This document shows, one piece after another, positions 29,068-59,989 of a stretch of 64,000 nt of DNA. The first letter of the stretch is position 1. The number at the start of each line of letters is the position of its first letter. The notes under the pieces were generated by a model that saw nothing but the letters and a program-made list of their open reading frames with translations, was not told the DNA's origin and searched no databases. The stretch lies in the IMG/VR virus record IMGVR_UViG_3300045988_067909. One strand, 5' to 3'. Source of the DNA: a virus. The position numbers and the translations under genes were made by a program.

Positions 29068-30814
29068 TAGTTGGCAAAGCAAGTTCATTGCCGATTATAA
29101 TGATAAGAATCGTCCTAAGTTTAATGACGTATTCTTCTCTAAATCCGATGATGCTATTATCGAAGACCTAAAAGCTATGCTTATATCTTGTCAACGTGAT
29201 AAGTATTTCACAGTCAAGATTCTAGGATTCGATACTATAGAAGACTATGATGAAGTAAACAGACTTCTCATAGAAAACAATGATAATATCACTGTACCAA
29301 TCAAAGATAGCTATCTTAAGATACTTAAGGTAACCTATTATATTGAGGTCAATGGATATAGTGATACATTTGATGTGTATATAGCAGTGCCTAGAGTATT
29401 CGAAGGTGCTTATATCATCTTAAATGGTAATACGTACTTCCCATCTTTCCAATTAGTAGATGGGAGTACTTACAATAATACATTAGCAAAATCATCTAAA
29501 GTACAAAAGATTACATTGAAGACTGTCTTTGGTGCTTTACGTATGATTCGTAATTTCTATGACTATCAGACCACTGATGGCACTGTACTTAACGGTACAG
29601 TATATTCTATCATGTCTAATGGTGCTTCTTATAAGGGTAAGAAGAATGCAGTAGATAGAAAAGTTCCAGCATTCAAATACTTATTTGCTAAGTATGGTTT
29701 ATACGAAGCATTAAGTCTATTTGGATTCGATAATACTATCTTCATTTCTAAAGAACCTTTTGAAGAAGAAGAGAATTACTATACGTTCAAATGTCAAGCC
29801 ACTACTAGCCGTATAGGTTATGTAAAAGTAGCTAAGATATTATTCGATAATGACCGTGTATATCAATCAGCAGTTATAACTATCTTAGATAATCTTCGTA
29901 GTTTGAAGACTGGATATACAGCAGAGTCATTATTCAATAAAGACTACTGGGTTATTTCTCTTGGTGCACATTTCGTTAAGAATAATATGGAATATGAGAA
30001 AGGCTTATCCGCTCTATATTCTCTAGAAGATCAATACGACATAGTCACCAAGAAGAATATCAGATTACCATATGAATATAAATCTAATATTTATATGATA
30101 CTAAGATGGATGATGGCAGAGTTCTCTAATATTCGACTTAAAGATAACACTGATGTTACCAATAAGCGTATTAGATGGTCTGAATGGATTGCGTCTCTAT
30201 ATGTAATGAAACTAAATACAGGTATGTATCGTTTAAATGATATAGCTAGACGTCTTAAATCCGATACTATAATCAAACGTTTTAGACAATGTATCGATAT
30301 CAAACCTATGTACTTAATATCTGAGTTACAAAAGAGTGGTATCAAAGGTTTCCGTAATATGGTTAATGAACGTGATGCTATATTACAATTAAAGTGGACT
30401 TTCAAAGGACCTACAGGTCCTGGTGAAACATCCAATAAGAATCTCGAGGGTAGACTTAAACGTATTTCTCCATCGCATTTAGGCATCTTGGACTTTAATA
30501 CCTCTTCACCAACTGAACCTGGTACTAGTGGTATTATGTGTCCTTTGAATCAAAGTGTATATGATGGATATACGTTTACTAGTGATGGTGAACCTAATAG
30601 CTGGGATGCATCTTTCAATGAACTTAAACAAAGTTATAGGGATGCTATTGGTGTTAAGTCCGCATTTGAATTAGCAGATGATATCGGAGCTGTTCTTGAG
30701 GGAGCAGATGACGGTAAGAATCGTGCTATCTATGAAATGTATCAAATGGGTAAATCCATAAGCCTAGCTAAACAGTCAAACTATCAACCTGGAGATCTTA
30801 TAGTCGAAGATTAA
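29060..30814 (+). CDS. multisubunit RNA polymerase beta subunit, N-terminal part (split rpoB homologue)
   Basis: Start ATG at 29060, translationally coupled to the previous gene. KWTFKGPTGPGETSNKNLEGRLKRISPSHLGILDFNTSSPTEPGTSGIMCPL parallels RpoB LSALGPGGL...[25 protein letters not shown]. Confidence 0.6.
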   Translation: MNNSWQSKFIADYNDKNRPKFNDVFFSKSDDAIIEDLKAMLISCQRDKYFTVKILGFDTIEDYDEVNRLLIENNDNITVPIKDSYLKILKVTYYIEVNGYSDTFDVYIAVPRVFEGAYIILNGNTYFPSFQLVDGSTYNNTLAKSSKVQKITLKTVFGALRMIRNFYDYQTTDGTVLNGTVYSIMSNGASYKGKKNAVDRKVPAFKYLFAKYGLYEALSLFGFDNTIFISKEPFEEEENYYTFKCQATTSRIGYVKVAKILFDNDRVYQSAVITILDNLRSLKTGYTAESLFNKDYWVISLGAHFVKNNMEYEKGLSALYSLEDQYDIVTKKNIRLPYEYKSNIYMILRWMMAEFSNIRLKDNTDVTNKRIRWSEWIASLYVMKLNTGMYRLNDIARRLKSDTIIKRFRQCIDIKPMYLISELQKSGIKGFRNMVNERDAILQLKWTFKGPTGPGETSNKNLEGRLKRISPSHLGILDFNTSSPTEPGTSGIMCPLNQSVYDGYTFTSDGEPNSWDASFNELKQSYRDAIGVKSAFELADDIGAVLEGADDGKNRAIYEMYQMGKSISLAKQSNYQPGDLIVED

Positions 30815-38532: not shown

Positions 38533-38569
38533 TACAGGTACTGGAATTTCCAGTACCTGTATATTTTTT
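38533..38569 (+). terminator. rho-independent terminator (second copy of the ACAGGTACTGGAAnTTCCAGTACCTGT family)
   Basis: Hairpin followed by atatttttta. Confidence 0.55.
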
Positions 38570-38574
38570 ATAAT

Positions 38575-38650
38575 CGTAAAACTCTTTTTTTTTAGTTGTA
38601 TACTATAATGGTAATATCATGGTTATATATTTATTAGTTAATTAGAAAGG
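38575..38650 (+). promoter_or_regulatory. conserved promoter-like repeat copy
   Basis: cgtaaaactctttttttttagttgtatactataatggtaatatcatggttatatat, followed by RBS aaaggag and ATG. Confidence 0.45.
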
Positions 38651-38661
38651 AGATATATATC

Positions 38662-39183
38662 ATGTATTTACAACAATTAACAGAAACTTCCGGGGTCGAA
38701 ATCACACATTGGTTTGAAAATACTTTCTTTATTTCTAACAATGTTACAAAACGTGGCATCATTGATGTTGGTGATGGTGGTAAAGTCGAACGTGCTTCTT
38801 TAGAATACTTTTCCAATTATATTGGAGCGGTCGAAATTGTTAAATGGGTACCGAATTCCAATAGTGAAATTGAGGAGTATTTTACCAAGTATCTCGCAAT
38901 GGTGATTGCTATGGATCACGATATCGAAAGTGATCCAAACAAAATTGAAGCGATGAAAACATTGCTCAATTTGCACGGTACTTTATTCATTGAAAACGAT
39001 ACTACAGTATTTAAGTTTAAAGACTTAGGCACTATTGCACCGTTTGAAGATGATAGCTGGTACGTCTGTCCTGATGGTGCAGACAATGTACTTTGTAAGA
39101 CTTTAGCCGAAGCGGCTAAAGTGATGGCAGAGTATAAAGCAAAATTAGAAGAGAAACCTGTTCTCTTCAAAAACATTATCTAA
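38662..39183 (+). CDS. hypothetical protein (promoter-cassette gene)
   Basis: 173-aa ORF between the promoter repeat and a terminator. Codon usage visibly GC-richer than the flanking genes. Confidence 0.5.
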   Translation: MYLQQLTETSGVEITHWFENTFFISNNVTKRGIIDVGDGGKVERASLEYFSNYIGAVEIVKWVPNSNSEIEEYFTKYLAMVIAMDHDIESDPNKIEAMKTLLNLHGTLFIENDTTVFKFKDLGTIAPFEDDSWYVCPDGADNVLCKTLAEAAKVMAEYKAKLEEKPVLFKNII

Positions 39184-39192
39184 AAAGAATAT

Positions 39193-39237
39193 CACAGGAT
39201 AGGACATTGTCCTATCCTGTATACTTTTCTTTTTTCT
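39193..39237 (+). terminator. rho-independent terminator, family ACAGGATAG-ACA-TGT-CTATCCTGT
   Basis: Hairpin cacaggataggacattgtcctatcctgt followed by a T-run. A covarying copy sits at 42712-42760. Confidence 0.5.
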
Positions 39238-39264
39238 ATGATACTGAGGGTATAATGATAATAT

Positions 39265-39335
39265 CGTAAAACTGTTTTTTTAGTTGTATAATATAATGGT
39301 AATATCATGGTTATATATTTAGTTAATTAGAAAGG
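39265..39335 (+). promoter_or_regulatory. conserved promoter-like repeat copy
   Basis: cgtaaaactgtttttttagttgtataatataatggtaatatcatggttatatat. Confidence 0.45.
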
Positions 39336-39346
39336 AGATATATATC

Positions 39347-39805
39347 ATGAAATTCGTAATAGTACCTTGGTGGCAAAATGAAGACTATCTTGTAGTAAGA
39401 GCTATCCCTACTACGAAAGTAGAAAGGAACTCTTTAGAGATTCTAAAGTATGACATACAAGACGACTATGGTTATTGGGAACCACAAAAATTAGGGTTTG
39501 AGTTAGGCACTAAATACCTAAACGCCCTAGGATACCCAAACCTAACATTTTGGGGTGAGGATAGTCCGATAGAATGTCGGTTTGACCCAAGAGAACCAGA
39601 GGGTTATCAGTCTTACGATGTCACTGCTGCACCTCGAGATGTCGAGGTAATGGTTGCAGGCTATCGTTTACTAGGTCGTCATCGCAAGGTTGCCCGTATA
39701 CTTAAGGAAGTAAAAAGAAAAAATAAAGTATTCAATGAAGAAATTCTTCGTCATATGGATACTTGGGGATACCAAATTCCATACAGCACAGAGGAAGAAG
39801 AGTAG
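39347..39805 (+). CDS. hypothetical protein, paralogue of 43434-43844
   Basis: Shares AIPTTKVER, ILKYD and VAGYRLLGRHRKVARILK blocks with the 43434 gene. Confidence 0.5.
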   Translation: MKFVIVPWWQNEDYLVVRAIPTTKVERNSLEILKYDIQDDYGYWEPQKLGFELGTKYLNALGYPNLTFWGEDSPIECRFDPREPEGYQSYDVTAAPRDVEVMVAGYRLLGRHRKVARILKEVKRKNKVFNEEILRHMDTWGYQIPYSTEEEE

Positions 39806-39840
39806 GGTTTCCCTACTCTTCTCTCTTTTCTTTTTTTCTT
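39799..39840 (+). terminator. rho-independent terminator
   Basis: Hairpin agagtagggtttccctactct followed by a long T-rich run. Confidence 0.45.
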
Positions 39841-39914
39841 AGAGTAATAAAAATTATGGTTATATAATATAGCTATGACTCATTGGTTATATTTAATTTA
39901 AAGGAGGATTTAAA

Positions 39915-40382
39915 ATGAGTGGATTTATTGTTAGTGAAATTAAGAGTACAGAGCGTACTAAAAGGGACTTGTTTATAGATTTTCATAATTTTATAGGCTG
40001 TCTACCGTTAGGCACACATCAAAAGAAGTCAGTAGATAATGCTAGAAATAAACGTGTTGAAATTATCATAAGTGATACTGAAGATGAGGCTACTTTGATC
40101 ATAAAAGATCTTAATGTGGCTATAGAATATCGTCTATATGATAGACCGTTTGGTTTTAAAACCATTAAAGTAGATGATATTATTTATAATAATTTTGATA
40201 ACCTACATGAGATTGATACAATGGTAATAAAAAAGATAGTAGATAGTTTATTATATTGGGCTGCTAGTGCTTCTGATGGTAAACCGTATATTTTACCTAT
40301 GCATATATTTGATATGGCTACACGTATATATCAAGCATGTATCTTTATTGATTTTGCTAGACCGTTGGATGAGATTAATTAG
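39915..40382 (+). CDS. hypothetical protein
   Basis: Weaker promoter-like element (ttatggttatataatatag) and RBS aaaggaggatttaaaATG. Confidence 0.45.
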   Translation: MSGFIVSEIKSTERTKRDLFIDFHNFIGCLPLGTHQKKSVDNARNKRVEIIISDTEDEATLIIKDLNVAIEYRLYDRPFGFKTIKVDDIIYNNFDNLHEIDTMVIKKIVDSLLYWAASASDGKPYILPMHIFDMATRIYQACIFIDFARPLDEIN

Positions 40383-40394
40383 GAGGATAAAACT

Positions 40395-40895
40395 ATGAGT
40401 GAAATTAAAGATCTTTATGATGGCAAGTATCATCTTGTAAACAATGAGATTCTAAAGTACTTAAATAAGTTCTTTGGAAGTTTTAGTCCACTAGCTATTG
40501 GTGGAGAAACACCTGAGGGTGTAGATATTGAACCACCGATGGAAATAGTGAAAACTATGGAAACTAATTATGGCAATTGTAAGTGTACAATGAATCTATT
40601 AGACTTGAATATGAAATTCCATCTACTAGAAGTAATGGATGCTGAAACTAAAAGATTCACTTACATCTTTTATGCTTTGGAATTACCTACTGGTATCCAA
40701 GCAGGACAATTCTCTATTGGTGCTATAAAAGCAGAAATATTACGTGAAGCATTAGAGTATGTATGGAAGACTCTAATGTCTAGTTCTAAGTATAATGATA
40801 TTGGTATTGATAGTACAGATGCATATGAATTGCATTCTATTATTGATTATATCTATTATACTAAAACAGTAACTAGTTATGGATTCGATTTTTAA
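40395..40895 (+). CDS. hypothetical protein
   Basis: RBS ttaggaggataaaactATG. 166 aa. Confidence 0.45.
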   Translation: MSEIKDLYDGKYHLVNNEILKYLNKFFGSFSPLAIGGETPEGVDIEPPMEIVKTMETNYGNCKCTMNLLDLNMKFHLLEVMDAETKRFTYIFYALELPTGIQAGQFSIGAIKAEILREALEYVWKTLMSSSKYNDIGIDSTDAYELHSIIDYIYYTKTVTSYGFDF

Positions 40896-40908
40896 TAAGG
40901 GGTGTATT

Positions 40909-41409
40909 ATGAGTGAGTTTTTAAGAATAGCTAAAGAAGAAGATTTTGTATATGAAAAATATATACCAAGATTATTTAACGACTTCTTTAGTCGTGTACC
41001 ATTTGACAATGAAGATTTCAATTACTTCATCAAGAAGAATAGAATTGTAAATATACTAGAATCGAGTAATAACTATATCGGTTATGGCATTCATTTACAA
41101 GATATCAATGTATATATTGTATTACAGTTCAAATGTGTTGATGGATACATTACTGATACTAGAGTGGATTATTTTGTATTAGATCCATTTGGTAAAAATC
41201 CAGTAACTGTATTGAATAGGTATGCCTATAAATTAGATAGGGATATCGTTCGTGCTATATTTGATGATATGGCTAAGCTAATGGCAGAATTCAAATTTGA
41301 TTATCCTGAACACAATAGAATAAACGATAAGGAATTCTTTGACTTAGCGCAAGACTATTTTTATTTAGCAACTAAGGATGCTATTTATAATCCACAGGAG
41401 GAATATTAA
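40909..41409 (+). CDS. hypothetical protein
   Basis: RBS taaggggtgtattATG at 40909 (the ORF track start 40879 lacks an RBS). Confidence 0.4.
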   Translation: MSEFLRIAKEEDFVYEKYIPRLFNDFFSRVPFDNEDFNYFIKKNRIVNILESSNNYIGYGIHLQDINVYIVLQFKCVDGYITDTRVDYFVLDPFGKNPVTVLNRYAYKLDRDIVRAIFDDMAKLMAEFKFDYPEHNRINDKEFFDLAQDYFYLATKDAIYNPQEEY

Positions 41410-41410
41410 G

Positions 41411-42106
41411 ATGAACTGGAACTATACTATTGATGAAACTAAAAATAATAGCCCATTAGACTTGGCTAAAGAGATTATAGAACTCGTTAGCCCTGATGGT
41501 TATGGGCATTATAATCAGTATGGTGGATATGAAAATATTCATTATGGAGAAGTAAATATCACACGCAATACCAAATTGCATGAATTAGTATATGCTTCTA
41601 AAAATTATGGTGATATCATTGTCAAAGTAATTGAGCGTAATAATGTTGATGTATGCTATAATACAGTATGTGATATTATGATAGGTGATAAGCAATTCTT
41701 AGTTGATAGTGATCCTAAAGATGAAAGTGAGCGTTATTTCTCTTTCAACTATATGACTTGTGATCCAGAAACTGAAGAATATGTAGAAATCTCTGATACA
41801 GAATGCTTAGTAAAAGATTTAAAATATCTTTGTGAAGCATTGTTAGATATGGTAGAAACTAGTGGTGTAAAACATGGGTATCGGATTAATACTTACATGC
41901 TAAAGTACACACTAGACTATATCCAAATGGTTGAAGATGGTGAATTCGTTATAGATGATTTCTTCAACCATAATGATAGCTATTATTATAGTGCACATAC
42001 AAGAGCACATTATTTTGACGACCCAGAACCAAGACCAAACCCATATAAAGATCCTGAGTTTGATGAAGAATTCTGGGAAGCAGTAGAAAATAGAATGGAA
42101 AAATAA
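41411..42106 (+). CDS. hypothetical acidic protein
   Basis: RBS caggaggaatattaagATG at 41411. Confidence 0.45.
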   Translation: MNWNYTIDETKNNSPLDLAKEIIELVSPDGYGHYNQYGGYENIHYGEVNITRNTKLHELVYASKNYGDIIVKVIERNNVDVCYNTVCDIMIGDKQFLVDSDPKDESERYFSFNYMTCDPETEEYVEISDTECLVKDLKYLCEALLDMVETSGVKHGYRINTYMLKYTLDYIQMVEDGEFVIDDFFNHNDSYYYSAHTRAHYFDDPEPRPNPYKDPEFDEEFWEAVENRMEK

Positions 42107-42130
42107 TTATTATTTAGGAGGACTTTAACA

Positions 42131-42703
42131 ATGAAATTAGAAAACTTAGCATTTAACAAAACTTTAGGATTTGAACCAAAAGTAGAAGATATCAATGTAC
42201 CTAAACAAGGTGGTGGTACACTTAGAATGAAATCCACATCTAGAGAGTTTAGTTTCAATGGATGTCTATATACATGCAAGGTGATAATGGATTCTGATGA
42301 AAATGTTAAATTGATCAGATTGGCATATTCTAAGATTCCTACGGCACCAGTAAGAACACACATTGAGCTTACTGATATAGTAAGTAATGATGATGTCAAG
42401 AAATACTTTGAAACTATCTTACTAAGACTTAAAGTTTCTATAGATCAAATCTATAGAGAAACTAAAGCTGAAGGTGTTTTTGAATACATCAGGGATTTAG
42501 GTGGTATCTTAAAAATAGTAGACGGTAAAGTATATTTTGAATTGGATGGATTCAATATTAAGATTAAGCTAAATAGCAATGAAGAATGGGAAACTTACTT
42601 AAATGATAAGCAAATTTCCACTCATAAGACATTGCGTGATGCTGCTTATGATATAAACGATATTCGCAAAAAGAACTTTGCATTAATCCCTAATATTGTT
42701 TAG
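42131..42703 (+). CDS. hypothetical protein
   Basis: RBS ttaggaggactttaacaATG. 190 aa. Confidence 0.45.
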   Translation: MKLENLAFNKTLGFEPKVEDINVPKQGGGTLRMKSTSREFSFNGCLYTCKVIMDSDENVKLIRLAYSKIPTAPVRTHIELTDIVSNDDVKKYFETILLRLKVSIDQIYRETKAEGVFEYIRDLGGILKIVDGKVYFELDGFNIKIKLNSNEEWETYLNDKQISTHKTLRDAAYDINDIRKKNFALIPNIV

Positions 42704-42711
42704 ATAAACTA

Positions 42712-42760
42712 ATACAGGATAGTACAATGTACTATCCTGTATACTTTTCTTTTTTCTATG
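42712..42760 (+). terminator. rho-independent terminator (family copy)
   Basis: Hairpin atacaggatagtacaatgtactatcctgtat followed by acttttcttttttct. Confidence 0.5.
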
Positions 42761-42784
42761 TTACTAAGGGTATATTTGTAGTTT

Positions 42785-42855
42785 CGTAAAACTCAATTAT
42801 TTCAGTTATATACTATAATGGTAATATCATGGTTATATTATTTATTATACACAGG
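42785..42855 (+). promoter_or_regulatory. conserved promoter-like repeat copy
   Basis: cgtaaaactcaattatttcagttatatactataatggtaatatcatggttatattatt. Confidence 0.45.
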
Positions 42856-42866
42856 AGGAATATATC

Positions 42867-43271
42867 ATGACTACAAACACAAACACAGCAACTTTATCTT
42901 TAGTTTCTTGCCCAGAAGAAATGATGGCTAATTACTTTAGCCGTATTTCTGCTGAAAAGGCTGAAGGTATGAAGAAAGAGATTTTTGCTAAGTCTCAATC
43001 TGAACTAGAATCTCTTGTTAAAGCACTTAACGAGAATTTTAGTGCAGATACTTTTAATAGTGCTTTAGGTGATAGTGTGTCTGAAGAGTTATTTAATGAC
43101 TCGGACAACCTAAGACGCCATCTAAAGGACGAAGCTATTTCCACTATTAGTAAAATCCGTTCTTTCGTTAAGAACGGAAATAAGCAAGCACTATCTATCC
43201 TAGATTGGATGGAAGGGCTAGCTGTAGAACAAGCTAGTGATATCGTTAGAATCATTGAAGATAGACGATAA
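42867..43271 (+). CDS. hypothetical acidic helical protein (promoter-cassette gene)
   Basis: 134-aa ORF with RBS acaggaggaatatatcATG. Confidence 0.5.
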   Translation: MTTNTNTATLSLVSCPEEMMANYFSRISAEKAEGMKKEIFAKSQSELESLVKALNENFSADTFNSALGDSVSEELFNDSDNLRRHLKDEAISTISKIRSFVKNGNKQALSILDWMEGLAVEQASDIVRIIEDRR

Positions 43272-43277
43272 AAGATA

Positions 43278-43320
43278 AGGGTGGAGACAATGTCTCCACC
43301 CTACTCTTATTTACTTTTTC
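43278..43320 (+). terminator. rho-independent terminator, family GGGT-R-GAGACAATGTCTC-Y-ACCC
   Basis: Hairpin agggtggagacaatgtctccaccct. A covarying copy (A:T instead of G:C) sits at 43850-43878. Confidence 0.5.
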
Positions 43321-43348
43321 TATGATACTGGTGGTATAGTACGTATAT

Positions 43349-43420
43349 CGTAAAACTCTTTTTTTTAATTGTATACTATAATGGTAATATTCATGGTTAT
43401 ATATTTATTATTTATACAGA
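43349..43420 (+). promoter_or_regulatory. conserved promoter-like repeat copy
   Basis: cgtaaaactcttttttttaattgtatactataatggtaatattcatggttatatat. Confidence 0.45.
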
Positions 43421-43433
43421 AAGGAATATCATC

Positions 43434-43844
43434 ATGAAACTTATAAAACGTCAATTCGAAGAAAATGCTTATGTATCCACAGTAGCCATCCCAACTACAG
43501 AGGTGGAGCGCAAAATGATCCAAGCATTAAAGTACGATTTGATTTCTGAGGAGCCAGAAATTTGTAACTGGCACCCAGAATGGTTAGGCGAAAGCCTAGC
43601 CATTGAATATGCTAATGCGCTTGGACATAGTTGGGTTGACTTCTATGGTACTGATGAGTACATGGTAGTAGTTGATCCAGAGGGCACGTATGTTATTACT
43701 GCAACCCCTAGTAATTTAGAAACATTGATTGCAGGTTATCGCCTACTTGGTCGCCATCGTAAGGTGGCAATGATCTTGAAAAAGATCAAGAAGCTTGGTA
43801 TTGAAGACATGGTATCAAACATGACACCAGGCCGTCAAGCATAA
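43434..43844 (+). CDS. hypothetical protein, paralogue of 39347-39805
   Basis: Shares VAIPTTEVER, ALKYD and IAGYRLLGRHRKVAMILKK blocks with the 39347 gene. Confidence 0.5.
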   Translation: MKLIKRQFEENAYVSTVAIPTTEVERKMIQALKYDLISEEPEICNWHPEWLGESLAIEYANALGHSWVDFYGTDEYMVVVDPEGTYVITATPSNLETLIAGYRLLGRHRKVAMILKKIKKLGIEDMVSNMTPGRQA

Positions 43845-43849
43845 AAATA

Positions 43850-43896
43850 TAGGGTAGAGACAATGTCTCTACCCTAATCTTATTTTATTTTTTTAA
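43850..43896. terminator. bidirectional terminator
   Basis: Hairpin tagggtagagacaatgtctctaccctaatc followed by a T-run. Convergent with the minus-strand thyA gene ending at 43893. Confidence 0.5.
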
Positions 43897-44204
43897 ACAG
43901 CAACTACCATAGGGAGTTTACCCATATGGAAGTAGTTATCCACAATTACGCTATCTGGAGTAAAGTCATAGAAGTCTTGTACACTACCATTAATAACCAA
44001 TCTAGGCTCTTGTGTTGGTAGATTACCAGACTCATAACGTTTAATTTGTTCTTGTAAAGCTTCTATATGATTCTCATATATATGCATATTATTTACGATA
44101 TGAGTAAACTTACCAGGTTTAAGTTTACATACATGAGCTATCATATGAACTAGCATAGCGTATTGTGTTGTATTGAACGGGATTCCTAATCCCGTATCCC
44201 CCGA
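43893..44204 (-). CDS. thyA: thymidylate synthase, exon 2 (C-terminal part)
   Basis: SGDTGLGIPFNTTQYAMLVHMIAHVC...VAV parallels E. coli ThyA [26 protein letters not shown]...VAI. Reading frame continuous with exon 1 after intron removal. Confidence 0.8.
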   Translation of the reverse strand, partial: SGDTGLGIPFNTTQYAMLVHMIAHVCKLKPGKFTHIVNNMHIYENHIEALQEQIKRYESGNLPTQEPRLVINGSVQDFYDFTPDSVIVDNYFHMGKLPMVVAV

Positions 44205-44491
44205 CAAAGTGTTCTAGTATGGTCGTTAATCATACTACGTTCTCTTATGAACTGCTATATATTTCTATATAGATCAGACTATATCACGATCCGTCCCTGG
44301 TAGGACCCCAAACGTTTCCACCCACTTAGGTGTACTCTACTCACTTACAGATATACTGTATGCTTTCGATAGTCGTTGAACACAAATCTATTATAGATTC
44401 TTCGTAAATGATTATCGTATAAGTAAATTATACGACGTTCCATTTTTAGTAAGGTTATTCGATGTATATTACTATACAAAGGCGCCCGTTA
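44205..44491 (-). other. group I self-splicing intron (no ORF) interrupting thymidylate synthase
   Basis: The 5' exon ends in U (…CAGCGU) and the intron ends in G (…ACUUUG), as required for group I splicing. Intron RNA contains R-like GUUCAACGACUAUCG (plus coords 44363-44382, reverse complement). S-like GAUAUAGUCUGAUC (44271-44284, reverse complement) pairs with R as GACUA/UAGUC to form P7. The 287 nt are too short for a homing endonuclease. Confidence 0.8.
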
Positions 44492-44980
44492 ACGCTGGAG
44501 GAGTATGCAGTTTAATTTATCTTCTTGAACATCCCATAGTGTCTCATAAGCACATGGTTGTAGTGCCATATCTGGGAGATCTTCTATGTTCCAGAGGGTA
44601 ACTATCATACGTCTGCTATCTGGATCAGTTTTAATAGTATTGATAAGATTGTCTAGTTGATTGTATTTAGCAATCTGATATCCATAGGCTTTGCCTATAG
44701 TACCATCTTCTCTCATCCATTCATCCCATACATGACAACCCATCTTTTGTAGCTCACGTACATCATTGGATTGCATTTGCCAGATCCATAATAGTTCTTT
44801 AAGAGCAGTCTTAGCTGCTACAAACTTAGATGATAAGATAGGGAATTCTTCTTGTAAATCAAACTGCATGATTTGGTGTGGTAACTTATATGTCGGAATA
44901 CCTGTACGGTTATTACTATATGTACCGTGGTCTAAGATATTCTTTACAATATCAATATACTGCTTATCTGCGGTTCTCAT
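44492..44980 (-). CDS. thyA: thymidylate synthase, exon 1 (N-terminal part)
   Basis: [42 protein letters not shown] parallels ThyA [38 protein letters not shown]. Catalytic-Cys context [24 protein letters not shown] matches [24 protein letters not shown]. Confidence 0.85.
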
Positions 44981-45060
44981 TTATATACCTCCTGTGGAAT
45001 TAAAAAAAATATATTTATATTAGGGTGTGAACTCTATATTAAATTACAATGTGGTGATAT

Positions 45061-45140
45061 CGTAAAACTTGATTATTTCAGTTATATACTATAATGGTAA
45101 TACAATGGTTATATATTTATTTAGTTAATTAATCAAGGAG
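45061..45140 (+). promoter_or_regulatory. conserved promoter-like repeat copy
   Basis: cgtaaaacttgattatttcagttatatactataatggtaatacaatggttatatat. Confidence 0.45.
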
Positions 45141-45150
45141 GATATTAACC

Positions 45151-45546
45151 ATGGCACTTTTACACGATTTAGAAAATTTAAGTGTGTTATCTTATAATGA
45201 AATTGTTGAAGGTATTAACAATTTCAAGCATACAATGAAAACATACTTAGATGAAACACAAGACATTGTAGACTTATTACTTTTCTTAAGTGATAGTATT
45301 GGGATGAGTATCCCGGTATTTTCAGATGAAGAAAAAGTAAAAATGTTTACCTTGGGTTTTGCATATTCCACGGCTAATATCGCATTATCTATTTTGGCAA
45401 AAAACAGTGCTATCACATTTGAAGAGCATTGTAATCTTGCTGATTTAGTCTTCGATTATCGCAGTGAGTTTGCAGAACTTGTTGCAACAAAAATTATTGA
45501 AGCATTTGAACGCAAATGTGAAGAGAATAAGAATAATGTAGCATAA
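45151..45546 (+). CDS. hypothetical protein (promoter-cassette gene)
   Basis: 131-aa ORF with RBS atcaaggaggatattaaccATG. Followed by hairpin aggggtggtttatccacccct at 45553-45573 and a T-run. Confidence 0.5.
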   Translation: MALLHDLENLSVLSYNEIVEGINNFKHTMKTYLDETQDIVDLLLFLSDSIGMSIPVFSDEEKVKMFTLGFAYSTANIALSILAKNSAITFEEHCNLADLVFDYRSEFAELVATKIIEAFERKCEENKNNVA

Positions 45547-45666
45547 GTTTATAGGGGTGGTTTATCCACCCCTAATACTTAATTATTTTTTTTTGTAATC
45601 AGGATTTGAATTATATAATATAATTACGATACAGTGGCTATATTATATTTTAGAAAGGAGATTTAG

Positions 45667-45837
45667 AATGAGACGAAAGTATAGTTTTGATAATTTTATG
45701 GATATACTTCCATTAATTATCACAATACTAATAGTAACTGTAGTATGGGTTTACATGGACCTAGATTATGACAGACTATTTCATATGATAGCTTGTGTAA
45801 CTGCTGGGTTTATAGTAAGTATAGTATTAGATAGGTA
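45667..45837 (+). CDS. small membrane protein 1 of a 7-gene cluster (56 aa, below the ORF-track cutoff)
   Basis: RBS gaaaggagatttagaATG. Hydrophobic core ILPLIITILIVTVVWVY and IACVTAGFIVSIVL. Confidence 0.35.
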
Positions 45838-45867
45838 ATTTATTTAAAAGAAGGGATGATTAAAAGA

Positions 45868-45992
45868 ATGGAAACTTTATTTAATGGTATTAGATGGTTT
45901 GTAGATGCAAACTATATGATTATTGGTATGCTAGTTATAGCTACTATGATTGCTTTTGTAGAGACTACGAAAGTTGGTGATGATAATGAGTA
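45868..45992 (+). CDS. small membrane protein 2 (41 aa)
   Basis: RBS aaagaagggatgattaaaagaATG. Hydrophobic segment MIIGMLVIATMIAFV. Confidence 0.3.
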
Positions 45993-46552
45993 AGATTCAA
46001 TACATTCTTCTTACATTACTATCTGGTGGGTCTGGTACATATATTATGCTACATAGCGATCAAGACCCTTATTGGCTAAGCAGAACCATTATGTGTTTCA
46101 CATTGGTCGTACTATTCTGCTTTGCTTGGTATCACAATAGATACGTTGATAATATTCGTCTTATACGTGTGACTGCTGATATGCTGGTGAACCATAGCAA
46201 CGAAACACCAGAAACGGTTAAAGACAGAATTGAACAAGCGAAAACAGATGAAACATTATCAGACGTTAAACGTGCAGAAGTTATTAATGGTCTTGAACAA
46301 GTTTTGGAGTTGTTCAAACTATTCAATACTATGCCAACTATGGAAGAGATTACTAAAAGAAGTAATAATAATTGGTATATGGTTATAATCTTAACATTAA
46401 TTCTACTTATTAATGTATCATGGTTAAATGATACGTTCGCTATGATTAGTACATTAATATTAATGGTAGCATACATTGTGCTCCAGGTTCGAAGTATTAA
46501 ATTAGTAAGAGGTAAACCTGATGGAAAAGGAAAAACGTCTCTTTGGAAGTAA
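45986..46552 (+). CDS. membrane protein 3
   Basis: Start ATG at 45986 overlapping the previous stop (ATGAGTAAG). TM segments at the N-terminus (ILLTLLSGGSGTYIML, FTLVVLFCFAWY) and C-terminus (MVIILTLILLINVSW, MISTLILMVAYIVL). Confidence 0.45.
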   Translation: MSKIQYILLTLLSGGSGTYIMLHSDQDPYWLSRTIMCFTLVVLFCFAWYHNRYVDNIRLIRVTADMLVNHSNETPETVKDRIEQAKTDETLSDVKRAEVINGLEQVLELFKLFNTMPTMEEITKRSNNNWYMVIILTLILLINVSWLNDTFAMISTLILMVAYIVLQVRSIKLVRGKPDGKGKTSLWK

Positions 46553-46934
46553 AATCTTCCTAGAAATTTTCTCTTCAGAGCTTATTACATTGATATGCTC
46601 TAATATATTAGTATCTATATTAGTGTATAAAGAAATATATGCATTGGCTTTTATTAATATAGTAATAGGCGGGTATATCATTTCTGTACAAAGTGGAGAT
46701 ATTTCTTCCAACAAGTTCATTATTAACCATTTAGAAGATGGGCTTGTTAAATTTAATGAGCTTACTGGTGGTAAGATTAAAACCAATCTTCTTAATAATA
46801 CTAGTAAGCGTATTGCTATCGAAGAAGCATTAAAGAATGCTGTCAATGGTAGTGGAGAGGTATTTGTAGTTGCTTTATTGGTTACTATAGTGGATATTAT
46901 AGTTTTAGTGTTTAAAGGGTTAGGGGCGTTCTAA
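46521..46934 (+). CDS. membrane protein 4
   Basis: Hydrophobic segments LITLICSNILVSILVY, LAFINIVIGGYIISV, VFVVALLVTIVDIIVLVF. Confidence 0.4.
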   Translation: MEKEKRLFGSKIFLEIFSSELITLICSNILVSILVYKEIYALAFINIVIGGYIISVQSGDISSNKFIINHLEDGLVKFNELTGGKIKTNLLNNTSKRIAIEEALKNAVNGSGEVFVVALLVTIVDIIVLVFKGLGAF

Positions 46935-46935
46935 A

Positions 46936-47097
46936 ATGCTAACCATTTTGATGTATATAATCTTACCAGTGTTAATGGCTTTTACTTTTATGCTAGCGTT
47001 GTATAAAATACTTCATAAGAAATATGAGTATATATTTATTATGGTAATGCTAGCTGGGTTGTTCCACTGGTGGATTACATACCACGGAGGTATTTAA
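46936..47097 (+). CDS. small membrane protein 5 (53 aa, below the ORF-track cutoff)
   Basis: MLTILMYIILPVLMAFTFMLALY...IFIMVMLAGLFHWW. Start is 1 nt after the previous stop. Confidence 0.3.
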   Translation: MLTILMYIILPVLMAFTFMLALYKILHKKYEYIFIMVMLAGLFHWWITYHGGI

Positions 47098-47164
47098 TGC
47101 TAAGCTGAGTATAGTCATTGACTATACTCAGTTTCTTTATGTTTATTATAGTGAGAGGTGTATA

Positions 47165-47497
47165 ATGAAACTTATAATGTGTCTTATAGCTTTCCATGCT
47201 ATAATGACAGTTGGTGCTGATTGGGCTATAAACTATCAGCAAGACTTATATAGAATTCTATTAGTATATGTCCCAGGCATATTAGGTTCTATAGGGATAA
47301 TACTATATATGAATATTAGGCTTAGATTAGATGAAATAGCTGATCATATAGATAAGAGCAAGAAAGCTAGAATAGACTATGCTATGGTTACTAAGACTTG
47401 TCATAACTATGGAAGAAAGCTTATGGTATTTCTAGTAGCAATATATATTCTATGGGTGATTGAGATGATTGTAGTTAATATTATAGGGATGGTATAA
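47165..47497 (+). CDS. membrane protein 6
   Basis: RBS gtgagaggtgtataATG. TM segments LIMCLIAFHAIMTVGA, GILGSIGIILYM, LMVFLVAIYILWVIEMIVV. Confidence 0.45.
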   Translation: MKLIMCLIAFHAIMTVGADWAINYQQDLYRILLVYVPGILGSIGIILYMNIRLRLDEIADHIDKSKKARIDYAMVTKTCHNYGRKLMVFLVAIYILWVIEMIVVNIIGMV

Positions 47498-47498
47498 G

Positions 47499-47858
47499 AT
47501 GGAAAGAATAGCACAAGAGATAATTAAGAGAACTGGATATGTTATTGGTATAGTAGTTATACTACTGCTGATAGTGTTAAATGTAAAAACATTCCCATCA
47601 TTTAGGGAATGGTATGCATTTATATTTATGCCAGGTGCTATATTCTTAATACTGATGACTTATAACTTTATAACTTATAGTATGTCTAAATACTCAATGA
47701 ATGGTAATACTGAACAAGAGATATTACGTAATAGAGCTAAGTCTAAGCAGACTTGTATACGTTTCTCTCGTGGTATTACTGTATATGGTGTTGGTATAGT
47801 CTTATGGTATATGCTAGCCTTCATAGGGTCTATTATAAACAATCTACCACAATTCTAA
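47499..47858 (+). CDS. membrane protein 7
   Basis: Coupled start (TAAGATG). TM segments YVIGIVVILLLIVL, FIFMPGAIFLILMTY, GVGIVLWYMLAFIGSII. Confidence 0.45.
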   Translation: MERIAQEIIKRTGYVIGIVVILLLIVLNVKTFPSFREWYAFIFMPGAIFLILMTYNFITYSMSKYSMNGNTEQEILRNRAKSKQTCIRFSRGITVYGVGIVLWYMLAFIGSIINNLPQF

Positions 47859-47870
47859 GACAAAAGATAT

Positions 47871-47910
47871 CCCCATATAGGCATTGCCTATATGGGGTAT
47901 ATTATTTTTT
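47871..47910 (+). terminator. rho-independent terminator, TATAGGCATTGCCTATA hairpin family
   Basis: Hairpin ccccatataggcattgcctatatgggg followed by tatattatttttt. Confidence 0.55.
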
Positions 47911-48290
47911 ATAAGTAAACTGTTTTATGATTGCATACTATAATTGTGTATGGTAGATACAGCTAGTAACGTTAGCTGTATCTAAATATAACCATACACT
48001 TGTAGACATAAGTCTACGGGTCGAAAGGAGGTGACTCCTATGACTAGAGAACGAGAATCTATTCTCGCTATCTGTGCTCAGATTCCTGAGCTCGAAGCTA
48101 GAAGGCTAGCTTCTGAAAGCATCCCGGTTGGGACTGAATCTGGTGAAAGATTACCAGACAAAGATACTCCAATCGTCCACATGGTACCGCCATGGAGGAT
48201 GCGTCTATACCACAAATATGGGGTATAGATAAGGAGTATACATGGGTAAGGATATAGAACATTCTTACCCATGTATTATTTTTTATACTT
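47900..48290 (+). repeat. copy 3 (inverted orientation) of the repeated small-gene cassette
   Basis: Promoter-like gattgcatactataattgtgtatgg, leader hairpins agatacagctagtaacgttagctgtatct and gtagacataagtctac, ORF, and terminator catgggtaagg...cttacccatg. Matches the 20945-21715 cassettes in reverse complement. Confidence 0.6.
48031..48228 (+). CDS. conserved small protein, cassette copy 3 (65 aa)
   Basis: MTPMTRERESILAICAQIPELEARRLASESIPVGTESGERLPDKDTPIVHMVPPWRMRLYHKYGV. RBS aaaggaggtgactcctATG. Confidence 0.55.
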   Translation: MTPMTRERESILAICAQIPELEARRLASESIPVGTESGERLPDKDTPIVHMVPPWRMRLYHKYGV

Positions 48291-48312
48291 ATTTGTTAGT
48301 GATTTAGTAAAT

Positions 48313-48390
48313 CGTAAAACTTAGTATTTTCAGTTGTATAATATAGTGGTAATAGAATGGTTGTATTATTTAGTATTAATTGAAAAGGAG
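48313..48390 (+). promoter_or_regulatory. conserved promoter-like repeat copy (diverged)
   Basis: cgtaaaacttagtattttcagttgtataatatagtggtaatagaatggttgtattatt. Confidence 0.4.
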
Positions 48391-48399
48391 ATATTAACC

Positions 48400-48687
48400 A
48401 TGATTACTCTATTAAAAAAGTATTATTTAGACCTTACTTTTGTATGCCTAGTTGTATTTGGCTTTGTAGTTGCTACAAAGCTAGTATATTTAACAGGTAT
48501 AGACTGGTGGAATTGGGAGATTCTCCCAGTTTCCGCTAGTCCAGCTCTAAGAGAGACTGCTGAAAACTACATGACAATTGCCCAATTAGAGGTGATTGGT
48601 ATGTATGTTTTCATGGGGTTACTTGCCCCATTCGTTGCGACTATGTATGTAGCATATCGCAACGATCCTGAACTTCATCAAAAGTAA
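48400..48687 (+). CDS. small membrane protein (promoter-cassette gene)
   Basis: RBS aaaggagatattaaccATG at 48400 (the ORF track begins upstream at 48334). TM segments LTFVCLVVFGFVVA and VIGMYVFMGLLAPFVATMYV. Confidence 0.45.
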   Translation: MITLLKKYYLDLTFVCLVVFGFVVATKLVYLTGIDWWNWEILPVSASPALRETAENYMTIAQLEVIGMYVFMGLLAPFVATMYVAYRNDPELHQK

Positions 48688-48693
48688 TAAGTT

Positions 48694-48735
48694 GGGATAC
48701 AGGTATTAAGCCTGTATCCCTTATCTTATTTTATT
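48694..48735. terminator. bidirectional terminator
   Basis: Hairpin gggatacaggtattaagcctgtatccc followed by a T-run. The convergent minus-strand gene ends at 48740. Confidence 0.5.
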
Positions 48736-49852: not shown

Positions 49853-50275
49853 ATGAAAAGTCAACTAATCTATGATATAAACAAGAAGTTTATTGTAACC
49901 ATTCTAAAGAATATAAAAAACAACCCTAATGATATTGTCTTTGAATTTAAAAACTTCTATCTTTCTATTGATGTAAATAAAGAAAGAGAACAAGCTTCTT
50001 TTGTAATAACTGATAAAGATGGTAAAGAGATTATATCATTCTTTAAGCACTACATGAAGTATACAGCATATAGCAACTGTATGCCAATAGAAGACTTCTT
50101 AAGTGACCATACTACTAATGAAGCATTAAAGGATTTTATATTTGATGGTGGTAAAGCTATCAAATATCTATACGGTGGTGGTCCTGGCTATAGGATTATA
50201 ACCAGAGAGTTATACTTGCTATTAAATGAGCATGCTAAAGCGATAACCAAAGATAATTTCAGTTATATACTATAA
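49853..50275 (+). CDS. hypothetical protein
   Basis: RBS aacaggaggaattatctATG. The 3' end of the ORF contains a copy of the promoter-like core ttcagttatatactataatggtgatac. Confidence 0.45.
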   Translation: MKSQLIYDINKKFIVTILKNIKNNPNDIVFEFKNFYLSIDVNKEREQASFVITDKDGKEIISFFKHYMKYTAYSNCMPIEDFLSDHTTNEALKDFIFDGGKAIKYLYGGGPGYRIITRELYLLLNEHAKAITKDNFSYIL

Positions 50276-50545
50276 TGGTGATACTGTGGTAGTTATTATC
50301 TTATCTAACACACCCCACAGGTGCATAAACTCTAATACCCAACTATACTCCCTTTGGGTACTCTCCTTTAAAATAAATAATATAACCATTGAAAATGAAC
50401 GGAAAAATTATTTATGCACCTATCTATAATATTCCCTATACAATAATGAATATAATCACCCCTCTACCACAGTATCACATTGAACTTCGGCAAGACACTC
50501 CCTTTCGGTGTCTTGCCACCCCTTATTTATTTTTTGCCTATTTAG
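50255..50545 (+). ncRNA. candidate structured non-coding RNA (promoter-like box to terminator, no RBS-bearing ORF)
   Basis: Promoter-like core at 50255-50285. 16-nt long-range inverted repeat ggtgatactgtggtag (50278-50293) / ctaccacagtatcac (50461-50477). Strong terminal hairpin ggcaagacactccctttcggtgtcttgcc with a T-run (50491-50540). The only internal ORF (about 54 aa) lacks an RBS. Confidence 0.25.
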
Positions 50546-59354: not shown

Positions 59355-59488
59355 TATATATACCTCCTTCTTAATGAGTTGTTCAAGTATAGCAGTTTTA
59401 CAGGGTTTTTGTAAACCTGTTTTTTTTTTGATTGTATATTATAACTGTATACATAATTGGTTATATTTAATTTAAGGAGGAAACAATT

Positions 59489-59989
59489 ATGAATATCACA
59501 AGTCCAACTTTAAGACAATTAGCTTACAGTGCAATTGACGACAGAGAGAATCTAAGAACATTGAACGCATTAGACCGTGGTAATATGCCATTTAGAGTGA
59601 CATATAATCAAAACGGCTTAATTGAAATCAGTGTCGGAAACGATGTACGGAAGTTAGACTGTAGCACAGACTTCCGATGCGTCTGTCGTACTATCACTAT
59701 TGATAGCGAGCATTATTACGCAATTAAATGTGTAACTATGTTTGTAAACAAAGAAAGCCATAACCAAGATACGGTTATAGCTATTACAGTAACAGAGTAC
59801 GTAAAAGATTTATTTCAAGAGGATATAGAAAAGATTATAAATAATCTAAAATCTATTGAATCTGAGACAGAAACGATTGGTCGTTTCGATATTACTTATA
59901 ATAAAGGTAATATCATTCTAGAAGACCAAGTTAAATCTTTGACTTATAGATTGGACCATATAGTCCAAACTATATTGGATCTTAAATAA
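59489..59989 (+). CDS. hypothetical protein
   Basis: RBS ttaaggaggaaacaattATG preceded by a diverged promoter-like box (ttgtatattataactgtatacataattggttatat). 166 aa. Confidence 0.45.
   Translation: MNITSPTLRQLAYSAIDDRENLRTLNALDRGNMPFRVTYNQNGLIEISVGNDVRKLDCSTDFRCVCRTITIDSEHYYAIKCVTMFVNKESHNQDTVIAITVTEYVKDLFQEDIEKIINNLKSIESETETIGRFDITYNKGNIILEDQVKSLTYRLDHIVQTILDLK

Follow-up and report, generated by a model that had tools for sequence, protein, structure and literature searches.

Why should a series of short phage genes carry, one after another, nearly the same stretch of DNA in front of the start codon, and which polymerase reads it? Both questions are raised by the window, i.e., the whole stretch of 64,000 nucleotides analysed here, which is part of an uncultured jumbo phage (~260 kb) from human oral-type metagenomes with Bacillus phage AR9 as a distant relative (~30% amino acid identity). 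The ~90-base repeat appears most likely to be the phage's own early promoter joined to a common mRNA leader, and it is a known kind of element, yet with unusual additional conserved parts.

Multiple copies of the repeat had been reported in an earlier note, and the motif-model scan proposed there, run on the window as a position-weight scan, returned 11 copies (18–52 bits), exclusively on the plus strand, with cores at 13797, 38597, 39285, 39861, 42807, 43370, 45083, 45612, 48335, 50264 and 59433. The coordinates given earlier are all correct and every listed copy is real, while the copy at 45612 had been missed. Besides the 11 copies, only two matches in the window score above 8 bits (12.2 and 10.3); in shuffled sequence 0–4 matches do so (counts only), and no repeat copy is expected by chance. 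The 30-mer TATACTATAATGGTAATATCATGGTTATAT occurs five times with at most three mismatches and never in shuffles. Ten of the 11 copies are intergenic, 54–68 nt 5' of an ATG having a GGAGG-type RBS; the copy at 50264 overlaps the final codons of ORF 49853–50275. A strong hairpin closes every module and terminator-like sites number 27 as compared to 4.4 ± 1.9 expected. The architecture of independently transcribed modules of promoter, RBS, short gene and terminator was judged correctly. A single short gene follows most copies, but operons of five and about seven genes follow the weak copies 39861 and 45612, respectively, the partial copy at 50264 heads a non-coding RNA instead of the protein gene assumed earlier, and the genes, although short, span 94–173 aa rather than 110–175 aa. 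The repeat modules (family A) comprise the following features:

13775–13858, plus: family-A promoter and leader (CGTAAAAC box 13775, core 13797, predicted +1 13813, SD, ATG)
13859–14242, plus: cassette gene, 127 aa; relatives have an unrelated gene of 110–123 aa in this slot
14249–14275, plus: terminator hairpin AAGGCTAGAGGAATTTCCTCTAGCCTT, then T-run
38533–38561, unstranded: bidirectional terminator hairpin that opens the array
38575–38661, plus: family-A promoter and leader (core 38597, predicted +1 38613)
38662–39183, plus: cassette gene, 173 aa, family C0; in all relatives and only in this phage clade
39194–39220, unstranded: terminator hairpin
39265–39346, plus: family-A promoter and leader (core 39285, predicted +1 39301)
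39347–39805, plus: cassette gene, 152 aa, family C1, GC 0.40
39796–39822, plus: terminator hairpin, overlaps the stop codon
39845–39914, plus: weak copy (core 39861, predicted +1 G 39877), heads operon 39915–42703
42712–42742, unstranded: terminator hairpin after this operon
42785–42866, plus: family-A promoter and leader (core 42807, predicted +1 42823)
42867–43271, plus: cassette gene, 134 aa, C2; unrelated 129-aa gene instead in L015 and L031
43278–43302, unstranded: terminator hairpin
43349–43433, plus: family-A promoter and leader (core 43370, predicted +1 43386)
43434–43844, plus: cassette gene, 136 aa, C1 paralogue, GC 0.42
43850–43876, unstranded: bidirectional terminator common to cassette 43434 and minus-strand thyA
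45061–45150, plus: family-A promoter and leader (core 45083, predicted +1 45099)
45151–45546, plus: cassette gene, 131 aa, C6; unrelated 123-aa gene instead in L019
45553–45573, plus: hairpin AGGGGTGGTTTATCCACCCCT, then distal T-run
45596–45667, plus: weak copy (core 45612, predicted +1 G 45628), heads operon 45668–47858
47871–47897, unstranded: terminator hairpin after this operon
48313–48402, plus: family-A promoter and leader (core 48335, predicted +1 48351)
48403–48687, plus: cassette gene, 94 aa; terminator 48694–48720
59410–59488, plus: weak copy (TGTAAACC box, core 59433), then gene 59489–59989

The conserved element ATGGTTATAT at the 5' end of the leader, which is not known from AR9, is complementary to the start-codon region. 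The 5'/TIR duplex has a mean energy of −9.4 kcal/mol in 55 leaders versus −5.3 in 51 other TIRs, and of −8.4 versus −4.5 when only the window is considered (p = 1.4e-4). Three leader classes compensate one another (Fisher p = 1.8e-7, uncorrected for the ancestry that the leaders share). In the copy at 45083, 5' AATGGTTA pairs with TTAACCAT at the start codon, and the weak copies at 39861 (5' ACTCATT with AATGAGT) and 59433 (5' CATAATTG with CAATTATG) form this pairing from unrelated sequences; only the copy at 45612 lacks it. RNAalifold found no consensus structure for the leaders, and within family A there is no variation at most stem positions. An alternative places the conserved parts at the level of DNA, with the CGTAAAAC box and the direct repeat ATGGTAATAT/ATGGTTATAT as operators for a phage DNA-binding regulator rather than RNA-level elements. 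Two ATGGTWATAT units indeed straddle +1 one helical turn apart (11 bp spacing), TGGT at +8 to +12 is kept despite a differing pairing partner and is also found in the promoter family B and the non-coding RNA described below, and variable flanks surround the conserved CGTAAAAC box. However, no candidate regulator was found, and the downstream unit has a start-codon complement in nearly every copy, with variants that compensate, neither of which is predicted by a DNA operator. We consider it unlikely that operators are the explanation, and note that the operator and RNA-pairing readings are compatible rather than exclusive. On the operator view, a regulator would switch this promoter subclass on or off.

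Besides pairing with the start codon, which we prefer as the reading of the leader, the polymerase has to be considered, for which the earlier note had offered either an extended −10 sigma-A promoter or recognition by the phage's own multisubunit RNAP. The core of the repeat, AGTTRTATAMTAT-N6-R-ATA, aligns with the early promoter of the AR9 virion RNAP, AAATATATATTAT-N6-G(+1), a consensus derived from dRNA-seq and primer extension on chloramphenicol-insensitive transcription (PMC5312081). The common core is also present in a second promoter family, B (47932 on the plus strand, 21657 and 21291 on the minus strand), and at three core-only sites (3171, 23014 and 27638), and all 17 window sites are in register with promoters extracted from AR9, including the upstream T-run and R-ATA at +1:

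47915–48039, plus: family-B promoter (core 47932) and structured leader beginning GTATGGTAGATACAGC
48040–48228, plus: gene, 62 aa, one of three small-protein paralogues; terminator 48238–48276
20999–21310, minus: family-B module (core 21291, 60-aa gene 20999–21181)
21365–21676, minus: family-B module (core 21657, 60-aa gene 21365–21547), tandem 366-nt duplicate of the preceding module
23011–23099, plus: core-only early-type promoter AATTGTATATTAT-N6-G between UvsX-like and nvRNAP beta-C genes
27635–27701, plus: core-only promoter AAGTATATATTAT-N6-GATA, heads a gene run including nvRNAP beta-N (29036–30814)

Two genes for subunits of the non-virion RNA polymerase (nvRNAP) lie in the window, homologues of AR9 g089 and g105, and the promoter at 23011–23099 precedes the g089 homologue at the site that corresponds by synteny to AR9 promoter P087. 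The window sites resemble AR9/phiKZ-related early promoters in their AT-rich core (TATATAYTAT), 6-nt spacer and purine start followed by ATA, as well as in lying between a terminator and early operons, among them operons with nvRNAP genes; an AT-rich motif of the AR9-early kind precedes early operons in all jumbo phages encoding RNAP (reviewed in PMC7598289). They differ in that core variants in the window replace a T of AR9 by C or A, and in that family A adds the CGTAAAAC box in the −35 region, an invariant AATGGT spacer and a conserved transcribed element; neither the box nor the strict spacer has a counterpart in AR9, and AR9 early leaders are unstructured, whereas those of the window phage are predicted to fold onto the start codon. 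A virion RNAP gene was not tied to contigs of the clade of the window phage and was seen only on contigs of two relatives with DNA polymerases 45–46% identical. The window phage encodes thymidylate synthase, and uracil DNA may therefore be absent.

Could the repeats nevertheless be strong host sigma-A promoters in the early style of T4 or SPO1, with TATAAT/TATAMT as the −10 element and immediate host transcription? TATAAT is perfect in eight of the 11 copies, TATAMT in the core likewise makes a good −10 hexamer, and a start ~7 nt 3' of it nearly equals the predicted one. Yet there is no −35 hexamer (the position 16–18 nt upstream is variable and the conserved box GTAAAAC matches TTGACA at three of six positions at most), the TG extension is absent, and three copies (39861, 48335 and 59433) have lost the final T of TATAAT while retaining the AR9-like core. 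A sigma-70 scan of the window called no copy's own promoter; the only such site within a repeat unit (38547–38574) takes its first hexamer from the upstream terminator stem, and overall these sites are not enriched (67 versus 77 expected). Moreover, transcription in AR9-type phages is independent of host RNAP (PMC5312081). Because the core is of the AR9 type and lacks a −35 hexamer and a TG extension, a phage polymerase is favoured over host sigma-A, which we regard as distinctly unlikely; of the two options offered earlier, the phage's own RNAP thus gains support, also through the P087 synteny. Start site and timing of the repeat promoters are inferred only, from sequence.

Apart from an AR9-type early promoter with a pairing leader, one might suppose that recent origin or homogenising recombination, with a duplicated junction evolving in concert, is the only reason why the repeat is conserved, the minimal promoter alone being functional. 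Copies within one genome are highly similar and cassette exchange shows recombination at repeat sites, but this reading is very improbable in view of the absolute strand and position bias and of 53 non-redundant copies from relatives that keep conserved blocks with variable spacers between them across genomes 70–97% identical and even in a relative with a cassette protein only 56% identical. The array with its promoter and leader heads is a hypervariable region. The same slots hold different genes, or none, in different relatives (module 39236–39824 is missing as a whole in several and contains a different gene in others), and the exchange junctions coincide exactly with the conserved promoter/leader up to the ATG on one side and with the stop codon and terminator on the other. 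This cassette logic is that of the T4-type PeSLs, with a different promoter class. PeSLs are also composite repeats of terminator, early promoter, SD and ATG, are concentrated in a hypervariable region before ORFans, and contain the ends of insertions, deletions and replacements between close relatives, but their promoters fit the host sigma-70 −35/−10 consensus, which the window repeats do not (PMC2839356, PMC4122927). They also belong to another phage lineage with another presumed polymerase.

The copy at 50264 precedes a predicted, covariation-supported RNA of ~200 nt that is not known from AR9:

50249–50279, plus: partial copy, T-tract and core 50264 without CGTAAAAC box
50280–50476, plus: structured non-coding RNA; P1 joins nt 1–13 to the 3' end
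50488–50516, plus: its covarying terminator hairpin, ~100 nt upstream of the DNA polymerase gene

Read in reverse complement, segment 50361–50391 matches the family-A leader from its 5' element through the Shine-Dalgarno sequence, and the RNA may be an antisense partner of the common leader. It, and it alone among the elements described here, recalls the P1 c4 antisense RNA (Citron and Schuster 1992, cited in PMC8546580), likewise a phage small RNA with exposed segments complementary to a ribosome-binding region in an mRNA of that same phage. The window RNA differs in having its own promoter and terminator and in its putative targets, which would be at least 10 mRNAs, reached via the common leader.

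What do the cassettes encode? None of the proteins matches a PHROG, Pfam or PDB fold, and the 43434 protein, modelled with confidence (pLDDT 90), has no known fold relative. As proposed, 39347 and 43434 are paralogues (43% identity, E = 5e-30). GC-richer codon usage, ascribed earlier to several genes, is clear only for these two (0.40 and 0.42 versus 0.335 ± 0.028); 38662 and 48403 show a mild GC enrichment, and 13859 and 45151 none. The comparison with the SPO1 host-takeover module and with lambdoid morons holds only as an analogy: clustered short genes with their own promoter and terminator, some of deviant GC, are the common feature, whereas the cassette proteins resemble those of no phage family, the promoters are not of the sigma-A type and, in contrast to morons, the genes are not additions to a prophage. 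The cassette genes may be early effectors.

On balance we think it probable that the repeats are AR9-type early promoters with leader heads, read by the virion RNAP, in cassettes swappable by recombination. Each repeat would form a complete expression cassette head from ~40 nt upstream to ~50 nt downstream of the start, with the terminator of the preceding unit, the CGTAAAAC box at about −38 to −31, the T-tract and the core AGTTRTATAMTAT followed by the 6-nt spacer, purine plus ATA, ATGGTTATAT, an AT-rich stretch with the Shine-Dalgarno sequence and the start codon. By homology with AR9, the core would be an early promoter read by a virion-injected RNA polymerase, and the small genes would therefore be made at once and without the host polymerase. 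The 5' leader element would fold back on the start-codon region, as energetics and compensating variants suggest. Since head and terminator are near-identical across units, homologous recombination between phages swaps, adds or deletes the gene between them, as the comparison of relatives shows, and the array is thus a hypervariable store of clade-specific, putatively early genes.

A 30-mer core of the repeat that heads the short genes between about 38533 and 48735 (family A) occurs five times in the window at three or fewer mismatches and not once in shuffled sequence, and a repeat search clusters six to nine copies. When a position-weight matrix derived from the copies was scanned over the window, as the earlier note had proposed, 11 sites scoring 18-52 bits were returned, all on the plus strand. 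Only two other matches exceeded 8 bits (12.2 and 10.3), and shuffled windows yielded 0-4 matches above that value per scan, a figure that refers to the number of matches and not to their scores. Ten of the 11 sites are intergenic and lie 54-68 nt 5' of an ATG preceded by a GGAGG-type ribosome-binding site; the remaining one, 50264, overlaps the final codons of an ORF. Every copy is co-oriented with its downstream gene. Terminator-like hairpins number 27 in the region versus 4.4 ± 1.9 expected, and each module has one on its 3' side. The repeat thus exists as the earlier note had described it, except that the copy at 45612 had been overlooked; the modules with their own ribosome-binding site and terminator are likewise borne out, although the single genes span 94-173 aa and the weak copies 39861 and 45612 head operons. 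Genes 39347 and 43434 are indeed paralogues (43% identity, E = 5e-30). The elevated GC content ascribed to several of the cassette genes is clear in these two (0.40 and 0.42 vs 0.335 ± 0.028) and mild in two others, but two further genes are not richer. Membership in an SPO1-type module or among morons found no support.

The module terminators, together with the hairpins at 4265, 13727, 17845, 21676, 47862, 55434 and 59989 (family D9), are near-perfect palindromes of 12-14 bp with GGCATTGCC, GACAATGTC or AATTT/GAATTTCC as recurring centres and can therefore work bidirectionally. A conserved block, TTTTTCTATGATACTGRGGGTATA, is located at 39226-39264, 42746-42784 and 43310-43348 between the terminator T-tract and a CGTAAAAC box. 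This block is similar to the 3' arm of the terminator 5' of 13775 (TCTATACTGGGTAT) and may be a scar of past cassette joins.

Megablast retrieved no close deposited phage at the DNA level. The window proteins, among them topoisomerase II subunits, an NAD-dependent ligase, DNA polymerase, tail sheath and portal, are those of an AR9/PBS1-like jumbo phage, and homologues of two AR9 non-virion RNA polymerase (nvRNAP) subunits, g089 and g105 (27-30% identity), indicate that the phage encodes a non-virion multisubunit RNAP. The exact motif is present in 31 IMG/VR stretches with source contigs of up to 267 kb, contigs of 255-269 kb from ENA and JGI encode cassette proteins, and the one search that gave sample names led to datasets with the labels GOLT18 and ZHAN15, which we take to be human pregnancy-microbiome and oral/gut sets. 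We are therefore dealing with a common uncultured clade. Several other features of the window were recorded. ORF 18726-19991 weakly matches a PhuZ-type tubulin (phrog_4733, E = 1e-6); if true, this would be a marker for jumbo phages that form a nucleus or use a spindle. A 925-aa ORF (61065-63842, minus strand) without a PHROG match consists mostly of degenerate repeats of ~39-75 nt and encodes a Thr/Pro/Glu-rich repeat protein; repeats of 45-48 nt also occur inside ORF 1578-3110. The thymidylate synthase gene (43893-44980, minus strand) is interrupted at ~44255-44501 by a group I intron (Rfam RF00028, 52.4 bits, E = 4e-12) that a whole-window gathering search did not pick up. The window intron has no homing endonuclease, while that of relatives L034-L037 contains one of the GIY-YIG/NUMOD type; the intron core matches unannotated stretches of Streptococcus, Lactococcus, Staphylococcus, Vibrio and Acinetobacter phages.

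Early promoters of AR9, which were located with dRNA-seq and primer extension and are independent of protein synthesis, are attributed to the injected virion RNAP and follow the consensus AAATATATATTAT-N6-G(+1) (PMC5312081); according to a review, an AT-rich motif lies ahead of early operons in every RNAP-encoding jumbo phage (PMC7598289). Nine of the promoters that we extracted from the annotation of the AR9 record were aligned with 17 window sites. These included, besides family A, sites at which the core occurs in other settings, which are listed here with the nvRNAP genes.

Core sites outside family A and nvRNAP genes in the window
3171: core without long flanks, from the promoter alignment
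23014: core without long flanks, between a UvsX-like gene and the g089 homologue
23100-25328: homologue of AR9 g089, nvRNAP subunit, from protein comparison
27638: core without long flanks, heading the gene run in which the g105 homologue lies
29036-30814: homologue of AR9 g105, nvRNAP subunit, from protein comparison
47932 (plus), 21657 (minus) and 21291 (minus): family B, a second promoter family with the same core, driving three paralogous genes of ~60 aa

The window core, AGTTRTATAMTAT, agrees with the AR9 13-mer AAATATATATTAT at 10 of 13 positions, and the two sets of sites correspond in register: an upstream T-run, a AGTTRTATAMTAT-type core, six bases and then a purine, usually followed by ATA. 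This position, 6 nt 3' of the core, is A or G in 17/17 window sites. Placement is that of early operons as well, since the copies are co-oriented with their genes and both the g089 homologue and the run with the g105 homologue have a core site ahead of them; the core at 23014 sits where AR9 has its validated promoter P087. The family-A core is thus supported, by sequence comparison, as a promoter of the AR9 early type, and of the two polymerases considered in the earlier note the phage's own multisubunit RNAP is favored by the AR9-like core, the AR9-type placement and the presence of nvRNAP genes. The other, host sigma-A acting on an extended -10 element, is a poor fit. The repeat does hold a TATAAT, the final T of which is lost in three copies that retain the AR9-like core, and there is neither a TG at -15/-14 nor a TTGACA-like hexamer 16-18 nt 5' of the -10. 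A sigma-70 scan of the window called an own promoter for none of the copies; the sole site within a repeat unit (38547-38574) takes its first hexamer from a terminator stem, and sigma-70-like sites are not enriched (67 vs 77 expected). For the AR9-type reading, the gene for the virion RNAP is of interest. A beta'-N homologue was not found on contigs of this clade by a pattern-based scan that could overlook a diverged or intron-split gene; look-ups and profile scans showed such homologues to be abundant in other jumbo clades, and on two contigs with such a homologue the DNA polymerase shares 45-46% identity with that of the window. As the virion RNAP gene is not linked to contigs of this clade, the polymerase is assigned by homology and bracketing and not by demonstration. 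The AR9 late motif AACA-N6-TR, with 37 and 13 sites at or below expectation, is uninformative on promoter classes, and hairpins at the predicted +1 leave the start site unfixed because they reach a few pairs 5' of it.

The family-B genes encode paralogues of the type M.RE.LLSLCAQ.PELEARRLASE...WRMRLYH.YGV (20949-21700, minus strand, and 47915-48280, plus strand). The core promoter is the same in all three modules, each of which also has a long structured leader and a terminator, and two of them form a 366-nt tandem duplication.

In 53 non-redundant family-A copies gathered from relatives, the blocks follow each other in the order CGTAAAACT, 3-5 variable bases, T-run, AGTTRTATAMTATAATGGTAATA, 2 variable bases and ATGGTTATA, a pattern retained even in a relative whose cassette protein is just 56% identical. 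Such block-wise conservation argues for function and not for recency. The CGTAAAAC box, at about -38 to -31, has no established counterpart in AR9; other promoter types have related GTAAAC or GAAAC boxes at slightly shifted distances.

Clustering of the genes behind all family-A copies across relatives revealed that the same slot, named by its core position, holds unrelated genes in different relatives.

Alternative occupants of slots among relatives
Slot after the 173-aa gene: a gene for 152, 188 or 204 aa, or none
Slot 13797: 127 aa or 110-123 aa
Slot 42807: 134 aa or 129 aa
Slot 45083: 131 aa or 123 aa

Between relatives, homology stops at the start codon and restarts at the stop codon and terminator. 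In a base-by-base alignment of slot 13797, terminator, promoter, leader and ATGA are identical, the coding part is unrelated, and identity resumes from the TAA. Several relatives lack module 39236-39824, the junction lying within the terminator T-tract. The same behavior is known from the PeSLs of T4-type phages (PMC2839356, PMC4122927). As there, an intergenic stem-loop terminator is combined with an early promoter and followed by Shine-Dalgarno sequence and ATG at its end, insertions, deletions and replacements between close relatives terminate inside the repeats, and the repeats stand upstream of preferentially ORFan genes in hyperplastic regions. PeSL promoters, however, conform to the host sigma-70 consensus with -35 and -10, which those of the repeat do not match, and for this reason we regard the array as an analogue of PeSLs and not as a member. 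Neither PHROGs nor Pfam yielded a match for the cassette proteins. Homologue searches with the 173-aa family (C0) and the 39347/43434 paralogue family (C1) found members only within this clade, and a confident structure model of C1 (pLDDT 90) has no fold relative in the PDB and a single BFVD match, an uncharacterized metagenomic protein.

Under the AR9 start rule, family-A transcripts are predicted to start with AAUAUCAUGGUUAUAU, and this 5' element has its complement in the start-codon region. The resulting duplex averages -9.4 ± 1.0 kcal/mol in 55 non-redundant leaders, whereas the start regions of 51 other genes give -5.3 ± 2.1; within the window, the ten leaders reach -8.4 and pseudo-leaders taken from 48 other genes -4.5 (p = 1.4e-4). 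Variants on the two sides compensate each other: leaders with TC-ATGG carry ATATATC-ATG, those in which the C is missing (ATGG preceded by CA, GA or TT) carry TTAACC-ATG, and TG-ATGG goes together with ATCATC-ATG (Fisher p = 1.8e-7 for the association of classes, a statistic that ignores shared ancestry). Two weak copies achieve the same pairing with unrelated sequences, ACTCATT with AATGAGT in one, retained ahead of a different gene in one relative, and CATAATTG with CAATTATG in a second. RNAalifold found no consensus structure for 28 leaders because the pairing register varies between classes and the pairs are AU-rich, and we therefore relied on duplex energies, comparison of classes and the independent weak copies. 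Given this result, the absence of 5'/start-codon pairing in copy 45612 and the fact that AR9 early leaders are unstructured when folded whereas those of family A are predicted to fold back, we consider the fold-back onto the start codon probable, not proven. It could serve 5'-end stabilization, translation gating or both.

No gene is present in the 340 nt 3' of core 50264, the partial copy, and this stretch has an unusually stable fold (z = -3.3).

Structured RNA of the window
50280-50535: RNA of ~200 nt (50280-50476) with its own early-type promoter and a covarying terminator, 5' of the DNA polymerase gene

The RNA belongs to no Rfam family. Its homologues in the clade fall into three length classes (about 195, 245 and 270 nt), and the promoter and the motif ATAACCAT are retained in all of them. 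RNAalifold predicted a 13-bp helix between nt 1-13 and the 3' end, a second helix of ~12 bp and the covarying terminator, with 52 pairs, 20 of them with compensatory changes, for four sequences and 27 pairs, 11 of them compensatory, for seven. A family-A leader, from its ATGG element through the Shine-Dalgarno sequence, has its reverse complement in a conserved segment of the RNA, CTCCTTTAAAATAAATAATATAACCATTG (50361-50391), with exact complementary runs of 18, 16 and 12 nt to leaders 42807, 13797 and 45083, respectively. Segment/leader duplexes average -17.9 kcal/mol vs -6.4 ± 1.6 for shuffled segments, and divergent types of the RNA reach -17 to -27 with the leaders of a divergent genome (vs -8.8 ± 2). 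In the four-sequence consensus, the anti-SD lies within a stem and ATATAACCATT in its loop. Apart from this RNA, two family-B leaders are the only places where the 10-mer occurs in sense orientation; scanning for the loop with a 15-mer was discarded as too unspecific. Own promoter and terminator, covarying structure and an exposed segment complementary to the family-A ribosome-binding region are sequence features of an antisense sRNA and suggest, as a hypothesis that the sequences support well, that 50280-50476 is a trans-acting antisense RNA for the entire cassette family.

Many human-microbiome jumbo-phage contigs of 230-248 kb in IMG/VR (loci L233-L297) have a DNA polymerase 41-56% identical to that of the window. 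In the 515 nt 5' of this gene, the core promoter motif is absent except in L291 and L292, and ATAACCAT except in L264 and L274. Loci L041 and L042 from other clades have TATATATTATA ahead of genes.

Shared leader and 50280-50476 RNA might, as a tentative proposal that we rate as somewhat less probable than its opposite, constitute a post-transcriptional circuit. The start codon of a family-A early mRNA would be closed by the mRNA's own 5' end, and the early-transcribed structured RNA, which carries the reverse complement of the leader with the anti-5'-element (AUAUAACCAUU) in a loop and the anti-SD (CUCCUUU) in the neighboring stem, would pair in trans with the whole set of cassette mRNAs. The most likely effect would be a block of the ribosome-binding site or directed cleavage, and hence a joint shut-off of the early effectors. 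As binding would occur via the shared leader, one small RNA would thus control every gene recombined into a slot.

The element is most likely a jumbo-phage early promoter arranged as PeSL-like exchangeable cassettes. Relative to the known promoter type it has three additions, namely the upstream box, which is unexplained, and, as new proposals, the self-pairing leader and the antisense RNA. Cassette shuffling in the style of PeSLs is accordingly not bound to host-type promoters. A standard "plug-in" head of promoter, self-pairing leader and matching antisense RNA is suggested to place any newly acquired gene under common transcriptional control and, given its leader and antisense RNA, perhaps under post-transcriptional control as well. 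Handles on promoter recognition by the poorly understood virion RNAPs are offered by the CGTAAAAC box together with the transcribed element. A widespread, uncultured, human-associated family of jumbo phages thereby obtains an early-promoter model, which can be used on metagenomes to predict sets of early genes for host takeover or anti-defense.
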